This document shows, in pieces, positions 1,563 through 19,477 of a stretch of DNA of 21,408 nucleotides; position 1 is the stretch's first letter, and each line of letters begins with the position of its first letter. The translations under genes were made by a program, and so were the position numbers. The notes below the pieces were generated by a model that made no database searches, was not told the DNA's origin, and saw only the letters and a list, made by a program, of their open reading frames with translations. Origin of the DNA: Myxococcota bacterium (GTDB taxonomy: Bacteria > Myxococcota_A > UBA796 > GCA-2862545); the NCBI GenBank assembly GCA_039208735.1, contig JBCCQY010000166.1, positions 1-21,408 of the forward strand, written 5' to 3'.

Positions 1563-2498
1563 TCAAGGGGTCGATGCTTGGGCGGTCGGAGGAGCCTCCT
1601 CCTTGAGCCTCGGCACGAGTACGATCTCGATGCGGCGGTTGAGCGCTCGCGATGCCGCATCGTCATTGGACGCCGCGGGCCGATGTTCGCCGTAGCCGAC
1701 ACTGGCAATGTTCAGTGGATCGACGCCCTCTTTGACCAATAGGGCCACCACGTGGCTCGCTCGCAGCGACGACAGCGCCCAATTGTCGGGAAAGGGGGCG
1801 CCGGAACGCACCGGAACATTGTCGGTGTGCCCCTCTACACGAATCTCTCGATCGTCCACCCGAGCGAGGATGCTCGCCACCCGCGTGAGGGCGGCCACGC
1901 CCTCGGGCTTGAGGTTCGTCTGGCCTGACGCAAAGAGAATGCGGTCGGAGACGTTGACGGTGAGCTTGCCCGAAAGCTCGGTGATCGTGACCGCTCCGGC
2001 CTCGATTTCAGACTTCAGCTCCTCGACGAGGGCGTCGTATTCGGCTGTCCGCTGTTCAAGGGCAGCCTTCTCTTCCGCGAGTCGCTCTCGTTCTGCGGCG
2101 AGTTCTTCGCGCTCCTCAGCAAGAGTGGCGGCGCGGTCTCGCGCCTCCTGGGCTTCGGCCTCGGCTTCCTCAGCCTCTTCGCGAAGCTTCGCCATCAGAT
2201 CTTCAAGCTCGGCTTTCTCGCCCCGCTGGGTGCGATTGACGGCCGATAGATTGGTCACTTTCTCGGCTAACGCCTGGAGCTTGTCGTTCTGCGCGGCATT
2301 CTTCGCTTCGAGCGTCTCGGTGAGGTCACCGAGCGATGCGTTGGTGGCTTCGGCGTTCGCCAGGGCTTTTTTGAGGTTGGTGACCTCGGCGTTCAGTCCT
2401 GCTTCGGTCGACGCAGCGGCCTCAATCAGCGCATTGTGCTTCTTCTTCCCTACACAGCCGGTGATGAGCAACGCGGCGATCCACATCGTTCGGCCCAT
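1563..2498 (-). CDS. OmpA/MotB-family peptidoglycan-binding lipoprotein with long coiled coil
   Basis: ATG 2498 follows a GGGAGG RBS. Lipobox-like LLITGC, a long heptad-rich helical region, and a C-terminal OmpA_C/MotB domain (ILFASG, IRVEGHTDNVP, NWALSSLRA, GYGEHRP, NRRIEI). Confidence 0.9.
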   Translation of the reverse strand: MGRTMWIAALLITGCVGKKKHNALIEAAASTEAGLNAEVTNLKKALANAEATNASLGDLTETLEAKNAAQNDKLQALAEKVTNLSAVNRTQRGEKAELEDLMAKLREEAEEAEAEAQEARDRAATLAEEREELAAERERLAEEKAALEQRTAEYDALVEELKSEIEAGAVTITELSGKLTVNVSDRILFASGQTNLKPEGVAALTRVASILARVDDREIRVEGHTDNVPVRSGAPFPDNWALSSLRASHVVALLVKEGVDPLNIASVGYGEHRPAASNDDAASRALNRRIEIVLVPRLKEEAPPTAQASTP

Positions 2499-2552
2499 GG
2501 CACCCCTCCCATACAAGATTCGGGGTGAAGAGAGCCCGATGCCGTCGCGGGG

Positions 2553-5500
2553 TCAAGCGCGGGGCGACGCCGCGAGCCCCTCCCGAAGGCGTCGTGCCCG
2601 GGCGGCGAATCCCAATCCCTCAAGCTCCTCGATGAGGCGAAGGACGGGTTCCGTAGGAGTCGCGCCCTGCCATGTCGCGGCAAGGGCCTGCAACGCGCGG
2701 GCATGAACGGCGAATCCTCGCATGGGCTCGAGTTCATGAGCGTGAATCGCGTTGGCTCGTTCCGCGAGCGTTACGGCATCGCGATCGAGCATCGCCAATT
2801 CGGCCCACCGCAAGGCGACTTGGGCTTTCGCCCAGGTATCGGCGGACGCCTCAGCATCGACGACCGCCTGCTCCAACGCCTCTTGGGCATCTGGCTGGCC
2901 CAATCGTCGGCGAACCACACCCAATTCGAGCACGGCCATGGATCGAAGCATGGGCTCGCCGATCGAAAGGTTGCAGGCTTCTTCTGCGGCTTGGAGCGCT
3001 TCTTCCTCCCGGCCAAGCTCCGACAGCGCCTGCGCTTTGACCGCCAACGAAGGTACGCGCTGGGCGAGGCGTCCCGTGGGCATTCCGGCACTCACCTCGA
3101 CGTTGGCCTGGGCTCGTTTGAGTGCACGGTGAGGCTCGTCGCCCTCGAGCGCAAGAAGCGCGAGTTGCAGGTTCACGCTACCCATCTGCCGTTTGGCGTC
3201 CACCGTTTCGAACCGACTGCGCGCTTCGTCGACCCGTTCCCGCGCCTTGCTCAGGTCGCCGAGCCGAAACAGCGTGGCGGCGAGGTTCAAGGTGGTGATG
3301 GCAGCACCGATCCCATCGCCCATGTCGTTTTCGACGGCCCGCGCGGACTCGAGGCGGATCTGGGCTTCGATCAGGTCGCCTGAAATACCGGCTACGATCG
3401 CCAGATTGCTGAGCGACACGACCTCGTCTCGGCGCCGACCCAATCGGCGGTACACCGCAAGCGAGGCCAGGTAGTGCCGGCGTGCCTCATCGAGGTTGCC
3501 GACGAGCCGTTCGACGGTGCCCAACGTGTTGCGCGCGCTGGCGTTGTGGGTGGGCAGCGATTCGGCGGCATCGATGGCCTGAACCAGCCAACGTCGTGCA
3601 CCATCCAAATCATCGCCGTCCAGCGCGTGGCGACCGAGCTGGACCAATGCCTCGGTGTGGAGCGTCGGAGACTTGCTGCGTCGGCCAAGTCGCAGGGCAT
3701 ACCCGAGCATGCCGCGCGCATCGGGCCGTTGAAGCGCTGACAACGTTCGTCCGAGCGATAGCGCGACCTGACCCTCGAGCTGGGGGTTGCCGATCTGTCG
3801 GGCCTCGCGTAGGGCGCGTTCGAGCGTTCCGCAGGCCTCGACAAGCCGCTTGTCCCGATGCTGCATTCGGCCCAGCACGTGTCTTGCGTCTGCGCGCTCC
3901 CGGGGATCCCGGGCCATGGCCAAGGCGCGTTCGGCCCAAACCAACGCATCCGGCTCGCCCATCTGGGTCCCGATGCGGGCGGCTGTCGTGAGCAGGCCCG
4001 GATGGTCGGGGGCGACGGTGAGGGCTTGCCGCGCCAGTTCGAGCCCCCGTTGCACCGGTCCTCTTGCCATCAGCACACGGCCTGCCGCCACCGTACAGCG
4101 TGCGGCGGTCTTCGCCTCGCGCGCCTCGATCGCGGCTTCGGCTCCCGCTTCGAAGTTGCCCAAATCGCGGGCCAAGGCCGAATCGACCGAGCCCCAAGGG
4201 GTCATGACGATGGATTCGGGACGGCCCCGACGACCAAACCATCGGGCGTGCCGCAGGGCCGTATCTCGAGGATTGTCGAGGTGAGAATATGCGAACAGGC
4301 GAATAGACTCGTAGAGGTGAAAACGAGGTTGGCCCGAGGACGTCGTTCGGGCCACGACAAGCGATCGGTCGAGCAACGTGCTCAACAAGTCGAGCACATA
4401 GGGGCGGGTCTCGCTGTCGTTGAAGGTGACGACACCTTCGGCATCCTCCACCGCGAACCCTTCCCGAAACACCGCAAGCTGCGCAAGCAGGGTCCGTTCA
4501 TGGACGCCAAGCTCCTCCCAGGATTCACGAAGGACGTTTTCAAGCGTCTTTTCGCCACCGGCGTTTGCAAGGACCCGAAATCGGTCGTCGAGCCGCTTCA
4601 GCAGTTGATCGGGGGTCAGCACGCGTGCCCGGGCCGCGGCAAGTTCAATGGCCAGTGGAAGCCCGTCGAGGCGACGGGCCAACTCATCAAGCACCGGCTC
4701 TGCGCTCGACGTGGTCCACATCAGACCCGCACGTCCTGCCGCATTGGCTCGGTCCCGCAGAAGATCCACCGCGTCGCGAGAGGCGAGCGGGCCCAGTTCG
4801 ATCACGGTCTCCTTGGGATGCCGAAGACGCTGACGGGAGGTCACGACCACTCGCATCCGGTCCGCGATCGGAAACCAAGTGTCGAGGGCGCGTTTGGTGG
4901 CATCCAAAGCGCGGTCCACGCCATCGAGGAGGATCACCAATTCACCGCGAACCCGCAACTGGTGGCCGACCTGAACCAGCACGGCCTCTTCGGTCTCGCC
5001 ATCCAACGGCAAGTCAAAGGCGCCGGCCACCGCACTGCAGAGGGAGGTCACGTCGGTAGCACCACTGGCATCGCACCACCACGCGCCCCCGGTGAACTGC
5101 CGAGCCGATGTGGCGCCATACCGTTGCACCAACGCAGATTTTCCCATGCCCCCAGGACCGTGAACCGTCACCAAGGAGCTGTTCTGCACCGCAGCCTCAA
5201 GGCGGGCCAGGTCTTCGGCGCGGCCAAAGAGGCTGTGTTCGGCAAACTCGATGTTTGAGGGTCCAATGGCGAGGGATGTGGCGTCGTCGTCGAGCTTGAC
5301 GCCCTGTCCGGAACTCACCTCGTGGACCCAATCCGCGAGTTCGGCTCCCTCCACCGAAAGTGAAAGCACGGCGTGTCGCACGGCGGCGCAGGTGTCGAAG
5401 CGGTCCGCCGGATCGAGAGCCAAACAGCGAGCCACGATGTCGCCAAGACCTTCGATGGCCGCATCCAGTTGCCGTTGGAGCAGCCCCTGCGCGATCTCGT

Positions 5501-6212
5501 CGGCGATGCGACGGTGTCGTGCACGGACATCCTCGATGGTTTTGCCGCGAACCATTCGACGCCCGAGTGCCATTTCGGCAAGAAGGATGCCCAAGGCGAA
5601 CTGATCTGCCCGAGGTCCCACGGCCCCGCCATGGACGAGCTGTTCAGGCGCCATGTAGCCGGGGGTTCCGATCGGCACGTCGGGTACTGCGCCCGCCAGC
5701 GTAGCCAAGCCGAGGTCGGCAACCTTCACCATGGCCGAGGGGGTCACGAGCACGTTGCTGGGCTTCAAGTCGCGGTGCACGATCGGATGGTCTCGACCAT
5801 CGATGGCGAGATTGTGGGCGTGATCCAACGCGCTCGCCAATTGACCCGCGAGTTGTTGCAGGGCCAGACCAGGCATGGCGCCAACGTTCTGGAGGAGTTC
5901 GAGCAACGTCGGCCCGGGCACCCACTCCATCGCAATGAGCCACCACGGGCCTTCACGGGCGAGGTCGTAGATTCCGACGAGATTGGGGTGGTCGAGCAGC
6001 GCGCCCAAACGAGCTTCAGAGACGCCTTCGGTCGTCGAGGTGCCCTGGATCAGCTTCAGCGCTAGGCGCTTACGAAACCCCGCGGGTCCGTTCAGGGTGG
6101 CCAAGTAGACCACCCCGGCCGCTCCGCGACCTACGACCCGCTCGAGCGTGTACCGACCGAGCGTTGTGGGGAGATTCTCGGGGGGCTCGGCAGGGGAGGA
6201 GGAGATCGCCAT
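2553..6212 (-). CDS. Ser/Thr protein kinase fused to AfsR-like STAND (NB-ARC-like) ATPase and TPR repeats
   Basis: Kinase motifs GRGAAGVVY, LALK, HRDLKPSN, DLG, GTPGYMAPE, ADQFALG. Walker A GPGGMGKS, Walker B VILLDG, and GLPLAIELAAAR. C-terminal helical TPR repeats. ATG 6212 is preferred over the track start at 6281. Confidence 0.92.
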   Translation of the reverse strand: MAISSSPAEPPENLPTTLGRYTLERVVGRGAAGVVYLATLNGPAGFRKRLALKLIQGTSTTEGVSEARLGALLDHPNLVGIYDLAREGPWWLIAMEWVPGPTLLELLQNVGAMPGLALQQLAGQLASALDHAHNLAIDGRDHPIVHRDLKPSNVLVTPSAMVKVADLGLATLAGAVPDVPIGTPGYMAPEQLVHGGAVGPRADQFALGILLAEMALGRRMVRGKTIEDVRARHRRIADEIAQGLLQRQLDAAIEGLGDIVARCLALDPADRFDTCAAVRHAVLSLSVEGAELADWVHEVSSGQGVKLDDDATSLAIGPSNIEFAEHSLFGRAEDLARLEAAVQNSSLVTVHGPGGMGKSALVQRYGATSARQFTGGAWWCDASGATDVTSLCSAVAGAFDLPLDGETEEAVLVQVGHQLRVRGELVILLDGVDRALDATKRALDTWFPIADRMRVVVTSRQRLRHPKETVIELGPLASRDAVDLLRDRANAAGRAGLMWTTSSAEPVLDELARRLDGLPLAIELAAARARVLTPDQLLKRLDDRFRVLANAGGEKTLENVLRESWEELGVHERTLLAQLAVFREGFAVEDAEGVVTFNDSETRPYVLDLLSTLLDRSLVVARTTSSGQPRFHLYESIRLFAYSHLDNPRDTALRHARWFGRRGRPESIVMTPWGSVDSALARDLGNFEAGAEAAIEAREAKTAARCTVAAGRVLMARGPVQRGLELARQALTVAPDHPGLLTTAARIGTQMGEPDALVWAERALAMARDPRERADARHVLGRMQHRDKRLVEACGTLERALREARQIGNPQLEGQVALSLGRTLSALQRPDARGMLGYALRLGRRSKSPTLHTEALVQLGRHALDGDDLDGARRWLVQAIDAAESLPTHNASARNTLGTVERLVGNLDEARRHYLASLAVYRRLGRRRDEVVSLSNLAIVAGISGDLIEAQIRLESARAVENDMGDGIGAAITTLNLAATLFRLGDLSKARERVDEARSRFETVDAKRQMGSVNLQLALLALEGDEPHRALKRAQANVEVSAGMPTGRLAQRVPSLAVKAQALSELGREEEALQAAEEACNLSIGEPMLRSMAVLELGVVRRRLGQPDAQEALEQAVVDAEASADTWAKAQVALRWAELAMLDRDAVTLAERANAIHAHELEPMRGFAVHARALQALAATWQGATPTEPVLRLIEELEGLGFAARARRLREGLAASPRA

Positions 6213-6346
6213 CCCAGAGACGATACCAGCCTCGGTGACGGCCTGGGGGCTCGACCGGCCGAGAACCGACCAAGATGACAAAAGCGGGCGGACATGTCAG
6301 TTTGTTTCGAGCCGAACACAGGCGCACCGCACGCTTGGGGGGCCAC

Positions 6347-6955
6347 TTGCCTCGAATCAACCCCCGAACGAGCGAGATCACCTGCAAGGTGGTCTACTAT
6401 GGGGCAGGAAATAGTGGAAAGACCACCAACCTCATTCAGTTGCACTCGCTATCCGACGCCGAGGCACGGACCAGCCTCGTGGGGGTTTCGGCCGAGGCCG
6501 AACGGTCGGTCTTCTTCGAGTACTTCGCGGCCGATCTTGGGCGCGTGGCCAACTACCGATTGCGGGCTGAATTTTACACGGTGCCCGGGCAAGCCTATTT
6601 CACGTCGACCCGCCGCCTGATCCTCGACCAGGTTGATGGAATCGTGTTCGTCGTCGATAGCGATCCCATGCGCTTTCGAGACAACGAACGTTCGCTTGAT
6701 GACCTGCGCAACGATCTCGGTAGCTACGGCCGGTCCGTCGAAGAGGTACCCCTGGTTGTCCAACTCAACAAGCGAGATTTGGTCGACGCAATGCCGGAGG
6801 CGGAACTGGCTCGCCACTTCAATCCGCTGGGCCGCCCTGTGCGGCCAGCGAGTGCGCGTCAAGGAGATGGGGTGGAAGCCACGCGCGATGCCATTCTTGC
6901 CTCGGTCTTTGAGGACCTGAAGCGGCGGGTTCAGCGAGGTCGGCCGAATGTCTGA
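6347..6955 (+). CDS. mglA: MglA-family Ras-like small GTPase
   Basis: From TTG 6347: MPRINPRTSEITCKVVYYGAGNSGKTTNL (G1), ERSVFF (switch I), YTVPGQ (G3), VDGIVFVVDS, QLNKRDL (G4), SA (G5). This closely follows the Myxococcus MglA layout. Probably a paralog rather than the motility ortholog. Confidence 0.88.
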   Translation: MPRINPRTSEITCKVVYYGAGNSGKTTNLIQLHSLSDAEARTSLVGVSAEAERSVFFEYFAADLGRVANYRLRAEFYTVPGQAYFTSTRRLILDQVDGIVFVVDSDPMRFRDNERSLDDLRNDLGSYGRSVEEVPLVVQLNKRDLVDAMPEAELARHFNPLGRPVRPASARQGDGVEATRDAILASVFEDLKRRVQRGRPNV

Positions 6956-7679
6956 AGCGTTTCGGGCGCGTGCGGAACACTGTGACTTGTCGGTCGTCTT
7001 GCAGCTCGTATCGGCCCAGTGGCTCACCGGACGCTTGGTGGTGGAGTCGGAACTTGCCGTCGAAGGAACCATCGAGTGCTTCGAAGGCTTGCCGGTGGGA
7101 GCCTCCTGCGGGAGCCTAGAGGGACTTCTGGCGTTCTACGAGACCTTTCTGGTTCCGCAGGTTCAGCTCGCGTTTTACGTCCAAGAGGTCAGCGAGCCGG
7201 GCCAGGGCCCGCTTGGCGAGGTCATGGTGCTCCTCCTTGAGGCCTGTCGGCGGCTCGACGAGTGGCGTTCACTGGGGCCACAACACCTTCGCGCGACCAG
7301 CCCTACACCCCAGGATGAGGCGGAAGCGGCCTTATGGCACGCGCTCGACGGCTCCCGGACGCTCGCTCAAGTGGTGGAGCATCAGGGGATGCCTTGTTCG
7401 AAGGTGGTCGACGTGGTGCGAGGGTGGCTGGATGAAGGGCGAGCGCTGGCTCTTGACGCACCGGATACCGAGCCGCCACCCCGGGAGTCTGCGCGGCCCG
7501 ATACGGTCGCGGTCCTGGCGCGGGGACGCGCTCAGGTACGCAGCGGAGACATCCGCGACGCCATCGCGTCGTTCCAAGAGGCGATGGCCCTCGATCCTCA
7601 CCACCTGTTGGCCCAGCAGCATCTGCTGCGACTTCGCCAGCTCCACCCCCACCTCTTCGACCCCGGAGACTCCCAATGA
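6948..7679 (+). CDS. DUF4388/PATAN-like domain protein with C-terminal TPR
   Basis: DLSVVLQLV...LTGRLVV...GTI.CFEG...GLLAFYE...LLLEACRRLDEW fits DUF4388. LDGSRTLAQV follows as a wHTH-like segment, and the C-terminal GDIRDAIASFQEAMALDPHH is a TPR. Overlaps the mglA stop by 8 bp. Confidence 0.72.
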   Translation: MSEAFRARAEHCDLSVVLQLVSAQWLTGRLVVESELAVEGTIECFEGLPVGASCGSLEGLLAFYETFLVPQVQLAFYVQEVSEPGQGPLGEVMVLLLEACRRLDEWRSLGPQHLRATSPTPQDEAEAALWHALDGSRTLAQVVEHQGMPCSKVVDVVRGWLDEGRALALDAPDTEPPPRESARPDTVAVLARGRAQVRSGDIRDAIASFQEAMALDPHHLLAQQHLLRLRQLHPHLFDPGDSQ

Positions 7680-8041
7680 CGGGCCCCCAAGACGACTGGT
7701 TGTCCGAGTCCGACCTCGATGCCCTCGTGGATGCAGGGCAGATCGCCCCGGCGGCTCAATCGCCCGTCGCCGCTCTCGCAAGCCAAGTGGTGGCACAGCT
7801 TGAACGGACGCTCGGGGGGCTGGGCGCAACCCTATCGGATGCCGCGTGGAACGCCGACGTCGCGGCCCTTGAAGCGGTACGAGGCCGCGTGGACCGACTG
7901 GCGTACGCGCCCGATGCCATGGCCCTACCCGCCTTCGACGCGTTGCTCGGTGAACTCGAACGAGCCGGCCAGGTGGACTTCGTGGTTCGGTTGCAGTCAT
8001 GGTGTAGCGAGGTTGACCAGCAGCTTGGGGAGCGGCGCTGA
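7676..8041 (+). CDS. Small helical hypothetical protein in the Mgl-like operon
   Basis: 121 aa, ATGA-coupled to the upstream gene, ending 1 bp before the next ATG. N-terminal WLSESDLDAL motif. No family recognised. Confidence 0.65.
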   Translation: MTGPQDDWLSESDLDALVDAGQIAPAAQSPVAALASQVVAQLERTLGGLGATLSDAAWNADVAALEAVRGRVDRLAYAPDAMALPAFDALLGELERAGQVDFVVRLQSWCSEVDQQLGERR

Positions 8042-8042
8042 C

Positions 8043-8417
8043 ATGGATGAAGCAGCACGGATGGCCATCATTCAGCAAACCCTGGATGACTTGGTGGCTT
8101 CGGATCGGATCGTGGGCTGCGCGGTCATCACCCTCGACGGGTTCGTGGTTGCGGTTGCAGCAAACCCAGCGTTCATCTCGCAGGTTGGCGATGTCGGAGC
8201 TCGCTTGCACGGCATTGGCCAGCGAGCAAGCGTTGCTCTGGAGCTTGGAGAGGTCGAGGAACACGTGGTCGTCGGTCAACGCGGTACGGTGATGATCCGT
8301 CCCCTCGATCGCCGAGAGATGATTGTTGTGGTCGCGGCCGAGGGGGCCCCGCTAGGATGGGTTCGCGTCTTCGCCGAAAAAGCGAGCGTTACGTTGCGAG
8401 CGGGTACGGCTGGCTAG
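8043..8417 (+). CDS. Roadblock/LC7 (MglB-like) protein
   Basis: ATG 8043 in the frame of ORF 7719..8417 gives 124 aa: IVGCAVITLDGFVV, ELGEVEEHVVVGQRGTVMI, APLGWVRV. These fit the roadblock fold signature. Confidence 0.85.
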   Translation: MDEAARMAIIQQTLDDLVASDRIVGCAVITLDGFVVAVAANPAFISQVGDVGARLHGIGQRASVALELGEVEEHVVVGQRGTVMIRPLDRREMIVVVAAEGAPLGWVRVFAEKASVTLRAGTAG

Positions 8418-8823: not shown

Positions 8824-9654
8824 CTAGAGGGGGCATCGGGCGGTGGGGAGCGCGGAGGCCAGAGCGTCCATACCGGCCTGAAGCTCCCAAGCGGGTGTGC
8901 GCGTCAGGCGGCCCTCGCCACGGACGAGCCCCGCGAGCGGGGTGGGTCCACGGCGTGAACTCCATCCATCGATCACAAGTACGGAAAGGTCGATGCCCGA
9001 CGCTTCAGCCCGATCCCCGAACCGATCGAGCGCGGCATAGGTGAATCGCCCTTCGGCATTGCAGTCGTGCAAGCCATCCACGACGAGCCAGAGGCTTCGC
9101 GTGCGTGAAGGGCTTTGTTCGAGCTGTCGGAGTGCGACCTCGAGGCCCAGCGCCACATTCGCACAGCGTCCCAACGTGGCCTCGATGTCCGTGGGGAGGA
9201 CCAAGTTGTCGACAGGGTCGTCGAGCGTCACCCAAGGGGCCGAATCGGGCTCCACCGTGCCCTGCCCATCCGACCACGAACGCTGGGCAAAGCCCACGAG
9301 ACCGAGCCGGCCGTCACGCGGGAGTCGCGAGGGAACCGTCGACAGTACGCCAAGGAGTTCTTCTTCGGAGAACCGCGCGGTGCTGCGCATGGACTCGGAG
9401 AGTTCCTGGGCGATGACCACGTCCGTGCCGTCATCACACCGAGGCTTCACGGAAGCCCCTACCGCGCGCTCCAGGTTGGTCAGTACGCCACGGCTCTCAA
9501 ACGTCGGCTCCTCGGGCACGGAGGGCGGAGGGGGGACGGGAACGGGTTCGTCGGCCACCACGGGGCCTGCGTCCAGCCCCCCTGGGTGCGTGGCAAAGAG
9601 CGCAGCGGGCAACGCGAGCGCCGCTAGGATGGCCGTCAGATAGTGCCGCCGCAT
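8824..9654 (-). CDS. Exported or membrane-anchored von Willebrand factor A (vWA) domain protein
   Basis: N-terminal signal/TM, Pro-rich linker, then DVVIAQELSESM (MIDAS-like), RLGLVGFA, NVALGLEVAL, LWLVVDG, GIDLSVLVI: a Rossmann vWA pattern. GAGG RBS. Confidence 0.7.
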   Translation of the reverse strand: MRRHYLTAILAALALPAALFATHPGGLDAGPVVADEPVPVPPPPSVPEEPTFESRGVLTNLERAVGASVKPRCDDGTDVVIAQELSESMRSTARFSEEELLGVLSTVPSRLPRDGRLGLVGFAQRSWSDGQGTVEPDSAPWVTLDDPVDNLVLPTDIEATLGRCANVALGLEVALRQLEQSPSRTRSLWLVVDGLHDCNAEGRFTYAALDRFGDRAEASGIDLSVLVIDGWSSRRGPTPLAGLVRGEGRLTRTPAWELQAGMDALASALPTARCPL

Positions 9655-9708: not shown

Positions 9709-11388
9709 CTATTTGTGAGAATTCGGGTTTCGGGGATTGCGGCGGTGCTCATCCAGGCGAATGATGCGGCCCTGAAGGCCTCGGCCGAGATGGACTCGCT
9801 TCCAACCGATTCGCGCGCTTTGGCCGGATTGGGAAAGTGCCTTGACGATGCGACCTCGTTGACGGGCCGGACTGTCCACCGGAGGCGTTCGAATCGCCTC
9901 TCTAATGTCCTCGGGCTCGACGAGTCTCGTCACCAGCTCGGCTCCGTCGAGCCACGTGAAGTACCCCGCCTCTCCAAGTTCGTGGTAGCGCAGGTCGATC
10001 TTCTTTTGTGCACCGTGGTCCAGTGGTCCGGCGCGTTCGACCAGGGTCTGCTTGGTGATCCAGTCGAGCTGGCCAAACAGGCGGCTCGGGTCGGATTCAA
10101 GCGCATCGAGGGTCTGCGACCACAACTTCACCAGCTGATGCGCCTCGACCGGCGCAGCGACCTCTTCGATCCAGGTTTGGGCACGTTCGAGGTAGGTTCG
10201 CTGTAGCTCGAGGGCGCTGGCTTCCCCGCCGCCGCGCAATGGAACGCGCACTTGCAGGGTGGCATCGTCCGAAATCGCACGGGCGGCGGCGACGGGGTCG
10301 CGGGGGCGCGGGGCATCACGAAGCACCCCCGCTTCGACCATGTCGAGCACCAGGGCCGTTGTGCCCAGCTTGAGGTACTCGGCGACGTCACATCGGTTGG
10401 CGTCCGACATGCCGATCTGCAGGCGCTGGCGCTTCGCGAACGCGTCGGCAAAGCTCCGCCAACGCAGCAAGGCGAGCCATTGCAAGGGTTTGACGAGGTG
10501 CCCCGTTTCAAAGAGCCCTCGGTCATGTCGGCCGATCGTGAGTCGCATCACCCGGCGAAGGTCCGCCATCTTTTCGGACAACGCCCAGCGGCCGTCCGGC
10601 TTGCGAGTGCCTGCTCCACTGACGATGCACCGGCTGACGAAGAACCCCATCGCTCGACGTTGGTAGGGCCGGTAAGCGAGCAGGCTGGCTGCACTGCTTG
10701 TGATCACAAACGAAGGCTGAAAAAGCAAGATGACGAAATCCTGCATCACCGAGGCAACCCGGGAGGGTATTTCGTCCACATCGGGCTCATCCCGTCCCGC
10801 GAGAGCGGCGACGATCGTGGCCACAAACAACACCACGACAACCAACAGGAGGGTCGTGACCAGCATGGTCAGCGTGATGGCAGCGGCGCCAAGCGCCAAG
10901 GGAGCCGCGCTTAGCAGGGCCAATCGCCAAAGCCAAAGCCTGGGCCCTCGAGCGACGAACACCTCGTAGCTCTCTTGGGCTCCGTACACGTTGCCCTGCG
11001 CGTCTCGACAGTTCTTAAGCAATCCCAATCGCGCTTCGACACCCTCGTTTCTAAGCCGTTCCTCGGCGAGTCGAACCGCGTTGGCGAGCAGCTGGTCTTG
11101 TGCCCGCTGGTACAGGAGGACCTGCGCAGGGCCTCGGCATTCGGGAGTGCCCGCCTCGAACAGTCCACCCTCTTGGTCGGGCAGCACGTGCTCGAACATG
11201 AAGGTGCCCCCGTTCTCGGTGAAGAACCGGGTGGAGACTTGTGCCTCGGCGAGGCGGGTGTGCACAAGGTCCCCCGCCGCGCTGGCAATGCGTTCGAACA
11301 GTTCCTCATTGCCGGGATGAGGGGTCGTCACCGGGGCTTCAAACCGAATGGCGTATTCGGTCTCGGCGCCCATCAGCCGGTCGAGCAC
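9709..11388 (-). CDS. PafA/Dop-family (Pup-protein ligase-like, GS/GCS fold) protein with internal transmembrane insertion
   Basis: Motifs colinear with PafA/Dop: LMGAETEY, FTENGG, EAGTPEC, KNCRDAQGNVYGAQESY, FFVSRCIVSGAG, RLQIGMSDAN, LKLGTTALVLDMVE, SALELQRTY, LDWITK, IDLRYHEL, PPxDSxAxxRG, W near the C-terminus. Hydrophobic block at aa ~151-198 and a weaker one at ~211-239. Confidence 0.88.
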   Translation of the reverse strand: MLDRLMGAETEYAIRFEAPVTTPHPGNEELFERIASAAGDLVHTRLAEAQVSTRFFTENGGTFMFEHVLPDQEGGLFEAGTPECRGPAQVLLYQRAQDQLLANAVRLAEERLRNEGVEARLGLLKNCRDAQGNVYGAQESYEVFVARGPRLWLWRLALLSAAPLALGAAAITLTMLVTTLLLVVVVLFVATIVAALAGRDEPDVDEIPSRVASVMQDFVILLFQPSFVITSSAASLLAYRPYQRRAMGFFVSRCIVSGAGTRKPDGRWALSEKMADLRRVMRLTIGRHDRGLFETGHLVKPLQWLALLRWRSFADAFAKRQRLQIGMSDANRCDVAEYLKLGTTALVLDMVEAGVLRDAPRPRDPVAAARAISDDATLQVRVPLRGGGEASALELQRTYLERAQTWIEEVAAPVEAHQLVKLWSQTLDALESDPSRLFGQLDWITKQTLVERAGPLDHGAQKKIDLRYHELGEAGYFTWLDGAELVTRLVEPEDIREAIRTPPVDSPARQRGRIVKALSQSGQSARIGWKRVHLGRGLQGRIIRLDEHRRNPRNPNSHK

Positions 11389-11397
11389 GGCCGTGGA

Positions 11398-11574
11398 CTA
11401 TTCGCCGCCGCCGGGCACTTCGGTGGCCCGGAGGTAGTCTTCGGGGCGGTCGTTCGCATCATCGCGGACCCGCTCGATCACACGTTCGAGCCGGTCACGT
11501 CGTGAGGGCGGGATTTCGGACGGCGTCGGCCGCGGATCCGTTTCGACCTTGCGGGCTTCGTGGGGCTTCGGCAT
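11398..11574 (-). CDS. Pup/UBact-like small protein modifier (58 aa, C-terminal GGE)
   Basis: GGAGG RBS then ATG 11574: MPKPHEARKVETDPRPTPSEIPPSRRDRLERVIERVRDDANDRPEDYLRATEVPGGGE*. Disordered N-terminus, helical middle, EDYL resembling Pup EEFV, and terminal GGE. Its stop is 9 bp before the ligase start. Confidence 0.8.
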   Translation of the reverse strand: MPKPHEARKVETDPRPTPSEIPPSRRDRLERVIERVRDDANDRPEDYLRATEVPGGGE

Positions 11575-11632
11575 GCAGACCTCCAGACGCATCCGATCGT
11601 AGTACCGCGTCCAGAAGCGATCGTCTGCCCTG

Positions 11633-12382
11633 TCAGCTACGAATGTGCGTAGGTTGCTGTGCGAGGTCGACGCTTCGGGGACTGGGACCGCTGCGGAGCC
11701 TGTCCGGGTCGTGCAGCAGCATGATCTTTTGCCAGACTTTGCGGCCGAGACCCGTCGTGAGGGTCTCGAGGTCGTTGACGGCAGCTACCACCTCGGTATC
11801 GCGCGTGCGCTCCCCGTAGACGGCGGCCAGTTTGCCGACGATCGAGAGCATCTCGGTGCAGTAGTCGAGGTAGCGACCCAGTTCGAACACGGACATGTTC
11901 CGCGCGGGCGACGAGGCGGTGGGCGCGCCGTTGGAAAGGATGACCGTGGGATCCTTGGTGAGCTGGTGCATGTCGACGATATGGGCCAGGGAGCGCAGCT
12001 CGTGGAGGCGCTCCAGGACCTGACGCCGTCGCATGCGCTGTTCGAGCGTGACCAAAAACCAAATGGCCGTGCCCGCAAGGATCATGAGGTTTGCGCCAGC
12101 TTCCAGGCTCGTGGTTTCCAAGGTGATGCTGTTGGTGGTGATCAGGTGGTTGACCACCCAGCCAAAGCTCGCCAAGGCGCCGCCGATCACCAGCAAGACG
12201 AGCATCCGCAGCCAGAGATTCGGACGGGCGATCCGATTGGCCCGGCGTCGGGTCTGCTCTGCGGTGGACTGCAATGCCTTACACAGCGCGAGCAGACTTG
12301 ACTCCGGAAACCGTTCGGCCACACGCTGGGTGAGCCGGGAGGCGGTTTCGGCGACTTTGGTGACTTTCAATCCGAGCGCCAT
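11633..12382 (-). CDS. Hypothetical membrane protein (two TM helices plus cytoplasmic helical domain)
   Basis: GAGGAG RBS then ATG 12382 (MALGLKVTK...). Two hydrophobic helices, then LHELRSLAHIVDMHQLTKDP and RYLDYCTEMLS. Function unknown. Confidence 0.75.
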   Translation of the reverse strand: MALGLKVTKVAETASRLTQRVAERFPESSLLALCKALQSTAEQTRRRANRIARPNLWLRMLVLLVIGGALASFGWVVNHLITTNSITLETTSLEAGANLMILAGTAIWFLVTLEQRMRRRQVLERLHELRSLAHIVDMHQLTKDPTVILSNGAPTASSPARNMSVFELGRYLDYCTEMLSIVGKLAAVYGERTRDTEVVAAVNDLETLTTGLGRKVWQKIMLLHDPDRLRSGPSPRSVDLAQQPTHIRS

Positions 12383-12411
12383 TGTACGCTCCTCGATGGG
12401 ACCAAACCCTA

Positions 12412-12930
12412 CTACGCAACGTCCAGGGCCATGGCGATCCGGGGCTTCACATCGAGGCCTGCGGCGGCCTCTTCCTTCCGGATCTGGGCAAGCCAATTGG
12501 GCAACGTGTCGGGCGGCAACACCACGAAGCCGTAGCGAGTGTAGAACGGACCGTTAAACGAGACATCTCGGTATGTTGTGAGGGTGACCCGTCGGGCCCC
12601 TTGGGCGCGCGCCGTGGTCGCCACATGGCCGAGGAGACGACGCCCAAGGCCTCGACCCTGTAGCTGCGGCATCACGCCGAGTTCGTGGAGGTGGAGCGCA
12701 TCGCCGTGGGTCTCGCACAGCGCGAAGGCGATGGGCACATCTGCCTCATCAGCCAGGACGAACAGGCGGTCGGCGTCGATGGACTTCGCCATGAGCGTCC
12801 GGTCCATTCCGCTGAATTGGGAGTCATCGATGCCCACCTCGACGAAGCGAGTGCCCGCCTCGCGCTCGATCTCCAAGAGGCGATCCATCTCGTCGAGTCG
12901 GGCGAACCTAAGTGGATAATCGTCGGCCAT
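12412..12930 (-). CDS. GNAT-family N-acetyltransferase
   Basis: LHLHELGVMPQLQGRGLGRRLL (acetyl-CoA-binding motif A) and VTLTTYRDVSFNGPFYTRYGF. Confidence 0.92.
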   Translation of the reverse strand: MADDYPLRFARLDEMDRLLEIEREAGTRFVEVGIDDSQFSGMDRTLMAKSIDADRLFVLADEADVPIAFALCETHGDALHLHELGVMPQLQGRGLGRRLLGHVATTARAQGARRVTLTTYRDVSFNGPFYTRYGFVVLPPDTLPNWLAQIRKEEAAAGLDVKPRIAMALDVA

Positions 12931-18137: not shown

Positions 18138-19316
18138 TCACTTGCGAGCTGGCCAATGCCACGAGGGCTTGTCGAGCAGGCCTTGCCCTTCGAGCTGGGT
18201 CTCCCCGAAGTCTTTGACGAGGACGTGATGCAGGGCCTCGGGATGTTCGAGGAGCGCATCGGCAAGCGAGGTCGCGTGGGTCACCACCATCACCTGGCTG
18301 CGCTCGGCGGCTCGGCGGATCAAGCGCCCTAACGCCGGCAACAGATCGACGTGAAGGCTTGATTCCGGTTCGTTGAGGACCAACAGATCGGGCGGGTAGG
18401 CCGAAAGTAGGGCTGCAGCGAGCATCAAGAACCGCAGGGTCCCTTCCGACAACTCCGCGGCCGACAACGGACGAAGCATGCCCGGTTGGGTCATCTGAAG
18501 GCGCAAGAACGCCATGTCTTCATGAATCTGAACCGAAGACCCCGGAAACGCATCGTCGATGACCACACTAAACGCCTTGTACGCCCGATCGTGATCCGTG
18601 AGCTGCAGCGTGCGGATGGCCGCCGCAAGGTCCGAGCCATCTGCCGCCATCACCGGAGTCCAGGTGCCGACCTGGGGTCGTCGGCTCGGGGCTTCCCGGT
18701 CCGCCCGAAGCTGATCGTAAAAGCGCCACTCCCGGATGCGTTCGCGCAGCACCAGCACCTCGGGCGTGCGCACCGGGTCTGCGATGCGGGTCAGCAGGCT
18801 CTCGAACATCGGAACGTCGCGCTCGACCTCGGTCCACCGGCCCTCGTCGTCGGCCGAGAGCAACAGGCGTCGCTGTCGATCGGCAAGGGCGTTGTGGCGG
18901 TTTAGCGAGGGGCCGGCCCAAATCACCTCTCGTTTGATTTCAGGGTCCAGGTCGAAGGCGCGAGCGGTGTTCCTTGGGGGCGGTCCAAGTTCGAGGCTGT
19001 AGCCAAAGTCGTCCGAAGAGAAACCCAACCGCAAGTGGATGGGTTTCGTGCGGACCGTGCCTTGGATGGGCACTTGGCCGGTGCGCATGGCGCGGCTGAT
19101 CGTCTCAGGACCCGCCCACAACGTGGATTGCAGCCCTCCCTCTTGAGCCAGAGACCGGACGAGGCGGCCGTGGGCGGCGTCGTGAAGGAGGGTGAGACAG
19201 CGATAGAGGCTGGACTTTCCCGATCCGTTTGCGCCCGTGATGACCACGAGCGGTCCCAAGGGCACCAAAAGGTCACGCAACGACCGGTAGTTCGAGACGG
19301 CGAGGGTTCGCAGCAC
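18138..19316 (-). CDS. Predicted ABC/AAA_21-type ATPase (COG4637-like)
   Basis: From GTG 19316: MLRTLAVSNYRSL, Walker A GANGSGKS, signature LSEGTLRF, Walker B LLVLNEPE, H-loop VVTH. Confidence 0.88.
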   Translation of the reverse strand: MLRTLAVSNYRSLRDLLVPLGPLVVITGANGSGKSSLYRCLTLLHDAAHGRLVRSLAQEGGLQSTLWAGPETISRAMRTGQVPIQGTVRTKPIHLRLGFSSDDFGYSLELGPPPRNTARAFDLDPEIKREVIWAGPSLNRHNALADRQRRLLLSADDEGRWTEVERDVPMFESLLTRIADPVRTPEVLVLRERIREWRFYDQLRADREAPSRRPQVGTWTPVMAADGSDLAAAIRTLQLTDHDRAYKAFSVVIDDAFPGSSVQIHEDMAFLRLQMTQPGMLRPLSAAELSEGTLRFLMLAAALLSAYPPDLLVLNEPESSLHVDLLPALGRLIRRAAERSQVMVVTHATSLADALLEHPEALHHVLVKDFGETQLEGQGLLDKPSWHWPARK

Positions 19317-19477
19317 CCGATTCGGTAGCCGCTTGTACCGGTGTCGACCAGGCCACATGAAAACGACCGTTAGGGGTCGAGCCCGCAACGAATGTGTCAG
19401 CTGGACAATCTCTTGACAATGCGACGCTCGTGAAACCACCTGAGTCATGCGTCAGGATGCCGACCAGCACTCGCATC

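Follow-up and report, generated by a model that had tools for sequence, protein, structure and literature searches.

The analysed window is a 21,408-nt stretch of DNA (positions 1 to 21,408 of contig JBCCQY010000166.1, assembly GCA_039208735.1) from a bacterium of the phylum Myxococcota, and the feature under study is a pair of adjacent genes on its minus strand that encode a small Pup-like tag and an enzyme of the PafA/Dop family. The tag gene (11398..11574) encodes 58 aa ending in ATEVPGGGE, with a proline-rich, low-complexity N-terminal half and a conserved C-terminal part of ∼30 aa. A Shine-Dalgarno sequence, GGAGG, could be read at 11580..11584 on the same strand, 5 nt 5' of the tag ATG. 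The tag stop codon is separated by 9 nt from the GTG (11388) of the second gene (9709..11388), which encodes 559 aa with a glutamine synthetase fold, as assigned by Pfam, NCBIfam, AlphaFold2 (AF2) and Foldseek. Residue numbers of the enzyme are counted from the ATG at 11373, five codons 3' of this GTG. An earlier note on this DNA had described a 58-aa open reading frame (ORF) with a GGGE end and a strong ribosome-binding site 9 bp 5' of a PafA/Dop-family gene; coordinates, GGAGG sequence and the match to PF03136 all agree with this description. Both the GC content and the GC content at third codon positions (GC3) of the two genes resemble those of their neighbours. A scan for promoters and terminators remained at chance level (1 vs. 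0.7; 3 vs. 3.4).

The gene pair is real and well conserved. A GGE-ending ORF was found directly upstream of the ligase in 24/24 other genomes with this ligase type (those whose ligase 5' end fell within the locus, duplicate loci being counted once), and the pairing of tag and ligase is therefore not due to chance. The check for a conserved tag beside ligase homologs, which the earlier note had proposed, was also positive in 45 of 47 metagenome loci. These 47 loci passed the filter among the best 80 of 522 confirmed matches, with near-duplicates included; 39 tags ended in GGE, five in SGE and one in DGE, two loci were without a tag, and none of the 47 had a Gln-ended tag, the single CGQ frame being a chance occurrence beside the true tag. 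Four more metagenome loci outside the 47-locus filter (L093, L102, L116 and L117) carried GGE tags as well. That the tag terminates in Glu, and never in Gln, is a new observation.

The 25 aligned tags, the window tag included, all terminate in GGE, and the conserved motif reads L..I..R...DA...P..YLR.T.VPxGGE up to the terminal Glu. Although 81 of the 164,740 six-frame segments in the tag's own genome end in GG[EQ], the tag profile matched only the window tag (E 2e-16; next 0.18). The hidden Markov model searches suggested in the earlier note had a divided outcome, as Pup_ligase matched the enzyme (PF03136, E 5.9e-77, model positions 1-440) and Pup (PF05639) matched 0/25 tags. A search of the PDB with the tag profile gave no significant match, and the Atlas search with the tag, with a top score of 0.81, was uninformative. 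The tag aligns to canonical Pup in the same register, though without detectable homology, and on sequence grounds it is not a canonical Pup.

The enzyme scored 192.9 bits with the NCBIfam model for PafA (TIGR03686; cut-off 551.3) and 165.3 bits with that for Dop (TIGR03688; cut-off 492.3), and it is 28-30% identical to a canonical Dop and PafA. Its AF2 model had a predicted local distance difference test (pLDDT) value of 94.2 and a predicted template modeling (pTM) score of 0.93, and Dop and PafA structures ranked first in the Foldseek search (E about 1e-26). The protein is not a plain PafA, a point that the earlier note had missed; it scores far below both equivalog cut-offs, carries a membrane insert and has an altered active site; as these families are curated, the enzyme falls outside PafA and Dop, and the tag outside Pup.

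Active-site residues were compared over 59 cassette-type ligases (those with an adjacent tag), 12 orphan membrane ligases, 17 Dop and 13 PafA rows, with 99 homologs in a separate alignment; positions diagnostic for ligase or hydrolase were taken from the excerpts available of Hecht et al. (PMC7947786), and those of PMC8599861 were also used. The GhExE ATP/Mg-binding motif (G2-A-E4-T-E6; 11356..11370, minus strand) has its G, E and E in 96/99 homologs, the remaining three having gaps. E61 (11191..11193, minus strand) stands where Dop (D94) and PafA have their catalytic Asp; this position is E in 99/99 homologs, in 59/59 cassette and in 12/12 orphan membrane ligases, and D in 17/17 Dop and 12/13 PafA rows. 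Besides GhExE, the residues E73, E78, N121, D124, E134, R248, R285, R317, D324 and W524 are kept. The features of carboxylate-amine ligases with the glutamine synthetase fold are present, namely G2-E4-E6, E61 and E73 on strands 2/3, Q133-E-S135, R317 and Q319-x4-D324; the third position of the [HQ]x[NH] motif on strand 4 is N in 78/99 homologs and S, as in the window ligase, in 21/99. The RDEPHAD loop is replaced by clade-specific amphipathic helices (residues 291-311; 10441..10503, minus strand) with a near-invariant K295 (98/99). Several features are ligase-like. The Dop-loop is absent, with a median spacing from G2 to N54 of 53 (81 in Dop, 43 in PafA), and its W[DN][YF] motif occurs in 0/59 cassette ligases vs. 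17/17 Dop; the PafA-type F51 is present in 58/59, and position 75 is A or G in 47/59 and not the Ser of Dop. The TPE proline is not diagnostic here, as 13/13 soluble PafA rows carry it too.

An insert of about 100 residues directly follows core strand 4, and the spacing between residues 137 and 248 has a median of 124, compared with 21 in PafA/Dop. This hydrophobic insert, at about 10678-10923, had been overlooked in the earlier note. In the AF2 model, helices 143-192 and 202-232 come after a strand (132-139) that bears the Q133-E-S motif. Residues 151-192 (10798..10923, minus strand) constitute an uncharged hydrophobic stretch with basic flanks that, from its hydropathy, is probably a two-pass hairpin; the longest uncharged run has a median of 42 residues and comprises at least 38 in 75/99 homologs. 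The second half of the insert is an amphipathic helix (residues 202-232; 10678..10770, minus strand) with a hydrophobic moment of 1.14 for 202-219 and conserved R208, E/D214, P220 and R230, and AF2 and hydropathy suggest that it lies on the membrane surface. In terms of hydropathy the insert thus comprises a 42-residue uncharged run, corresponding to two passes, and a weaker, amphipathic helix, which might be scored as a segment by a predictor. A two-pass membrane hairpin would leave the catalytic domain in the cytoplasm.

The complex of tag and enzyme was modeled with a score of 0.86, compared with 0.02 for the best control; the mark set for this score was reached by 116/157 solved complexes and by 2/215 mismatched pairs. 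At least 87% of contacts agreed between runs, and the pLDDT of the partner was at least 70. Tag residues 25-58 make up the modeled interface, in which the tag tail (44-58) is placed in the active site with E6, E61, G131 and Q133 of the enzyme. As the PafA-Pup and Dop-Pup complexes have already been solved (4BJR, 7OXY), the high score may reflect likeness to these structures rather than binding.

The host genome (9.4 Mb in 288 contigs, 92.7% complete, 6.15% contamination) contains one PF03136 match, the window ligase. It gave no match to PF00227 (proteasome), PF16450 (ARC OB domain) or PF05639 (Pup), for which the controls did match; the best TIGR03689 match reached 148 bits against a cut-off of 505, and tblastn with the canonical Dop, PafA, ARC and 20S beta of a different genome returned only the window ligase and generic AAA domains. 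The statement in the earlier note that the window lacks proteasome genes and ARC is borne out among the 26 window ORFs scanned, and the search for dop, ARC and prcAB that it had called for likewise found none across this genome. A hidden ARC was considered and rejected, since three of the four best TIGR03689 matches were FtsH-type and the fourth was an AAA frame of 448 aa that, judged by eye, lacked the ARC OB domain. The genome encodes three FtsH-type proteases. Bpa (PF10759) was not matched in the genome, but as the control matched nowhere either this is uninformative. Absence from an incomplete genome is no proof by itself; among the 24 other cassette genomes, the ARC OB domain or 20S alpha was found in 0/24 of these tag-bearing genomes, several of which are incomplete.

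A second group of homologs carries the membrane insert without an adjacent tag. These tagless membrane paralogs, from two families, are encoded in 12 genomes (loci L032-L042 and L044; genomes G403, G321, G232, G255, G379, G289, G120, G285, G394, G316, G162 and G171), with ARC in 12/12 and 20S alpha in 11/12, and in one such genome that was checked canonical Dop, Pup, proteasome and PafA were all present. They retain the canonical H, QR, R and H, while the D-to-E and R-to-S/T changes are common to both groups. In a tree of 103 rows, which was unrooted (midpoint), left out duplicates and partial rows and implies no order of events, the cassette-type ligases grouped in a clade of their own, separate from soluble PafA and Dop, with a Shimodaira-Hasegawa-like approximate likelihood ratio test (SH-aLRT) support of 99, and the tagless paralogs branched between the soluble enzymes and this clade. 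The split between tag-bearing ligases without a proteasome and tagless ones with a proteasome is newly observed here; relatives are not independent, so it may reflect very few events. Plausibly, the tagless paralogs may draw on the Pup of their host to route membrane proteins to its proteasome, whereas the cassettes may be self-sufficient.

The family is large; at E ≤ 1e-20 it comprises 721 of the 8000 proteins scored, a number that may include soluble PafA/Dop. Named homolog records are from Myxococcota, Planctomycetota, Acidobacteriota and Verrucomicrobiota, and the 89 pattern matches on viral contigs included no relative. The cassette is patchily spread, being present in 2/4 genomes of the genus and 5/36 of the family, and PF03136 was matched in 87/401 genomes of a phylum-wide sample. 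The Myxococcota-like host proposed in the earlier note fits the closest named relatives of the ligase, which are mostly Myxococcota records, and also the window's MglA/MglB-like GTPase and Roadblock genes.

We favor, with moderate confidence, a stand-alone, membrane-anchored system of the pupylation type that would carry out ATP-dependent lysine tagging of membrane-associated proteins. The hydrophobic hairpin would anchor the enzyme in the inner membrane on its cytoplasmic side, where, as in the modeled complex, the enzyme would bind the 58-aa tag through the tag's helical C-terminal half. ATP/Mg would be used to phosphorylate the side-chain carboxyl of the terminal Glu, and an isopeptide bond would then link the tag to a lysine on a protein close by, either in the membrane or associated with it. 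As the tag is made with Glu, no deamidase would be needed, which supports what the earlier note had argued from the GGE end; its self-contained two-gene tagging module is supported likewise. As the genome has a single gene of the PafA/Dop family, a pure hydrolase would find nothing to act on, and one enzyme plus a Glu-ended tag makes sense only with ligation, so that genomic logic would decide for a ligase. Removal of the tag, if any, could fall to the ligase itself, as with mycobacterial PafA; according to the excerpts of PMC5358908, PafA can depupylate and transpupylate without Dop. Since no proteasome was found, the mark would either have a regulatory role or be recognised by a different protease (FtsH or Clp). 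A non-proteolytic role, as suggested in the earlier note, is conceivable, and the three FtsH-type proteases could read the tag.

Several findings weigh against this reading. Several residues that hardly vary among the PafA and Dop rows differ in the cassette clade (Acidothermus Dop numbering first): D94 is replaced by E61 (59/59), H155 by Q133 (53/59), H241 by Q319 (56/59), R90 by T57 (A, S or T across the clade) and QR by EK (267-268), while R227 aligns with G291. The chemistry or the acceptor may differ for this reason. In the excerpts of PMC7947786 the alpha-loop region, a helix in PafA, is the discriminating factor between PafA and Dop; AF2 modeled it here as a short strand and loop, which is nearer to Dop, and position 523 is not the Asp of PafA. 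AF2 further draws residues 143-192 as one straight helix and not as a hairpin, so that the two-pass topology is tentative. In a profile-profile comparison of the tag with six canonical Pups the match was not significant (probability 0.9%, E 0.064), and the loci compared held no conserved third gene that would point to a target or a reader.

An outcome that shares this chemistry, and whose probability overlaps with that of the reading just given, is that the tag marks membrane proteins for degradation in the course of membrane quality control, with FtsH or ClpXP as its readers instead of ARC and the proteasome. We regard it as possible, if rather unlikely. The three FtsH-type genes of the genome and the presence of ClpX just upstream of the tag in L107, L113 and L131 speak for it, and the location of the tagless membrane paralogs in genomes with ARC and proteasome fits a degradative ancestry. 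The ClpX linkage, however, is that of a single clade of near relatives, and the presence of FtsH says little because it was matched in 10/14 control genomes. In addition, ferritin pupylation in Corynebacterium reportedly proceeds without degradation. The excerpts of PMC8223512 describe that it mobilises iron in Corynebacterium, which is without proteasome subunits. The acceptor might also be different, in that the same chemistry could join the tag to the amine of a membrane lipid (e.g., phosphatidylethanolamine) or to another small amine, so that the tag would become lipidated. ATG8 lipidation provides an analogy for a tag joined to phosphatidylethanolamine. In the model, the membrane anchor and the two amphipathic helices would bring the active site near the headgroups, and the catalytic base and surrounding residues are altered across the clade. 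YhhN-family genes, whose product is presumably a lysoplasmalogenase, lie downstream in four loci of family f38 (three by Pfam, the fourth by BLAST cluster), and a PAP2 phosphatase adjoins the tag in L012/L014. Yet these lipid-related neighbors are clade-local, the window has none, and other clades carry DUF456, chorismate synthase, ClpX or dihydroorotate-dehydrogenase-like genes instead; moreover, characterised PafA/Dop enzymes act on protein lysines in the excerpts of PMC2588565 and PMC7947786. A lipid or other small-amine acceptor is decidedly unlikely, and its narrower form, a rewired membrane enzyme that links the tag Glu to a lipid amine such as phosphatidylethanolamine and not to a protein lysine, slightly more so. 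If true, it would be a bacterial, single-enzyme counterpart of ATG8 lipidation with a glutamine synthetase fold, by which myxobacteria and planctomycetes would mark their membranes.

A hydrolase in place of a ligase, or a membrane sensor that binds the tag and has little catalytic power, is similarly improbable as the nature of the enzyme. Dop entries came slightly ahead of PafA in the profile (E 1e-63 vs. 2e-56) and fold searches, the alpha-loop is non-helical in the model and several catalytic residues are altered, but NCBIfam places PafA over Dop (193 vs. 165 bits), the Dop-loop is absent and the ATP and metal ligands are conserved across the 99 homologs. Moreover, no second family member that could make conjugates was found in the genome, and no Gln-ended tag to deamidate among the aligned tags and the metagenome loci. 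That the pair is a displaced piece of a canonical Pup-proteasome system, with the remaining genes in the unassembled part of the genome, is largely refuted and in our estimate very improbable. The genome is 92.7% complete in 288 contigs and canonical systems are present in other families of the phylum, which would allow for it; against it stand the lack of 20S alpha or the ARC OB domain in the 24 other cassette genomes, albeit kin and in several cases incomplete, the separation of the ligase clade from soluble PafA/Dop (SH-aLRT 99), and a tag that is not canonical Pup. 

Among the compared loci, some deviate from the common cassette. L107, L113 and L131 (about 2100-3900) form a divergent clade with SGE tags and clpX directly upstream. 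The cassette-clade ligases of L100 and L111 (about 3700-4000) lack a G[EQ]-ended ORF in the 330 nt upstream, and their tag may have been lost or lie elsewhere. A long-branch membrane ligase in genome G295 (L043; L066:7255-8988) has its own GGE tag and motifs intermediate between the tagless and cassette groups, and the ligase match in L025 (G132) has one in-frame TGA near its 5' end, which may indicate a pseudogene or an assembly error. A complete, canonical arc-dop-pup-prcB-prcA-pafA cluster is present in the same phylum as the window (L056:2720-10761, G171); its Pup ends in GGE, its Dop and PafA exceed the NCBIfam cut-offs, and a similar score pattern was seen in about 75/401 sampled genomes, few loci of which were checked.

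The cassette was without a consistent operon partner, as the 11 other window genes tested, the kinase domain aside, had no homolog in loci L002-L020; antisense frames of the ligase dominated the neighbor clustering and were discarded. YhhN, PAP2, DUF456, ClpX and chorismate synthase are clade-local neighbors of cassettes. Ser/Thr kinases, found at 11 of about 60 loci (two of them duplicates) compared with 13% of 12-kb windows drawn at random from the own genome, were dismissed as background. In the window, a gene whose product, a membrane protein, has two hydrophobic segments lies 58 bp 5' of the tag (11633-12496, minus strand); it belongs to an unnamed family, for which the Atlas clusters have 74-183 members and Pfam gave no match, and had no homolog in the other cassette loci compared. 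A protein with a signal peptide is encoded 54 bp 3' of the ligase (8824-9654, minus strand), in which vWA-like motifs were seen by eye and Pfam gave no match. Further away, genes for an Arf/MglA-like small GTPase, a DUF4388-TPR protein and an MglB-like Roadblock/LC7 protein follow in a row (6275-8417, plus strand), and a Ser/Thr kinase-NB-ARC-TPR (STAND) protein (2553-6281, minus strand) and an AAA_21/AbiEii-type ATPase (18138-19448, minus strand) are possible defense genes.

When compared with known systems, the cassette shares with actinobacterial PafA/Pup the fold, the GhExE motif, most metal and ATP ligands, a small tag ending in di-Gly-Glu and the modeled binding mode, but differs in its membrane insert, in the replacement of the catalytic Asp by Glu and other changes, and in that no ARC, 20S or Dop was found. 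Its tag, which Pfam does not detect as Pup (PF05639), is one residue longer between helix and terminus. With Dop (TIGR03688) the enzyme has in common the fold, the TPE motif with its Pro and, in the model, a non-helical alpha-loop, whereas the Dop-loop with its Trp motif and a Gln-ended tag are missing. The UBact system of Gram-negative bacteria reportedly combines a small GG[EQ]-ended tag and a soluble PafA/Dop-type enzyme with linked proteasome genes; the tag and PafA/Dop-type enzyme of the cassette are alike and likewise lie outside Actinobacteria, while proteasome genes were not found here. No Pfam family of the UBact type matched any of the 25 tags, the presence of a UBact model in the Pfam copy used being unconfirmed. 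In the excerpts of Hecht et al. (PMC7947786), a single-copy PafA/Dop homolog of Planctomycetes is about 30% identical to both enzymes and serves, without being assayed, only as the outgroup that roots their tree; the window ligase is single copy as well, with its 28-30% identity to Dop and PafA.

The closest precedent is an in silico prediction, and the novelty implied by the earlier note does not stand. The excerpts of Iyer, Burroughs and Aravind (2008; PMC2588565) describe Pup together with a PafA that has a transmembrane insert after strand 4, an arrangement without the proteasome in Plesiocystis pacifica and Rhodopirellula baltica, for which regulatory pupylation of membrane proteins was proposed. 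By its features the window cassette would be a new member of this membrane-insert class. Neither species is named among the 240 homologs listed, which do include proteins recorded under Nannocystaceae and Pirellulaceae, to which Plesiocystis and Rhodopirellula belong. A full-text literature search, in which subscription journals are poorly covered, found no experimental study of the class. As far as the excerpts go, window and class have in common a Pup-like gene beside a single PafA homolog, no linked proteasome or ATPase genes and a hydrophobic insert after core strand 4, and the adjacent Pup-like gene of 50-90 aa with a G[EQ] end corresponds to the 58 aa, GGE and 9 bp gap found here. They may differ in that the paper counts four transmembrane segments, where hydropathy gives two passes and an amphipathic helix here, and in the linked membrane protein described there, for which no single conserved family was found across the present loci. 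Predicted since 2008, the class is nevertheless widespread, with records from Myxococcota, Planctomycetota, Acidobacteriota and Verrucomicrobiota. If working as predicted, it would represent a two-gene, proteasome-free covalent tagging of membrane proteins and might serve as an orthogonal tool alongside PafA-based proximity labeling, and the split between cassettes and tagless paralogs provides a testable idea of the origin of the system. The window copy adds no new kind to the class of 2008, and offers a clean, intact test case of it.

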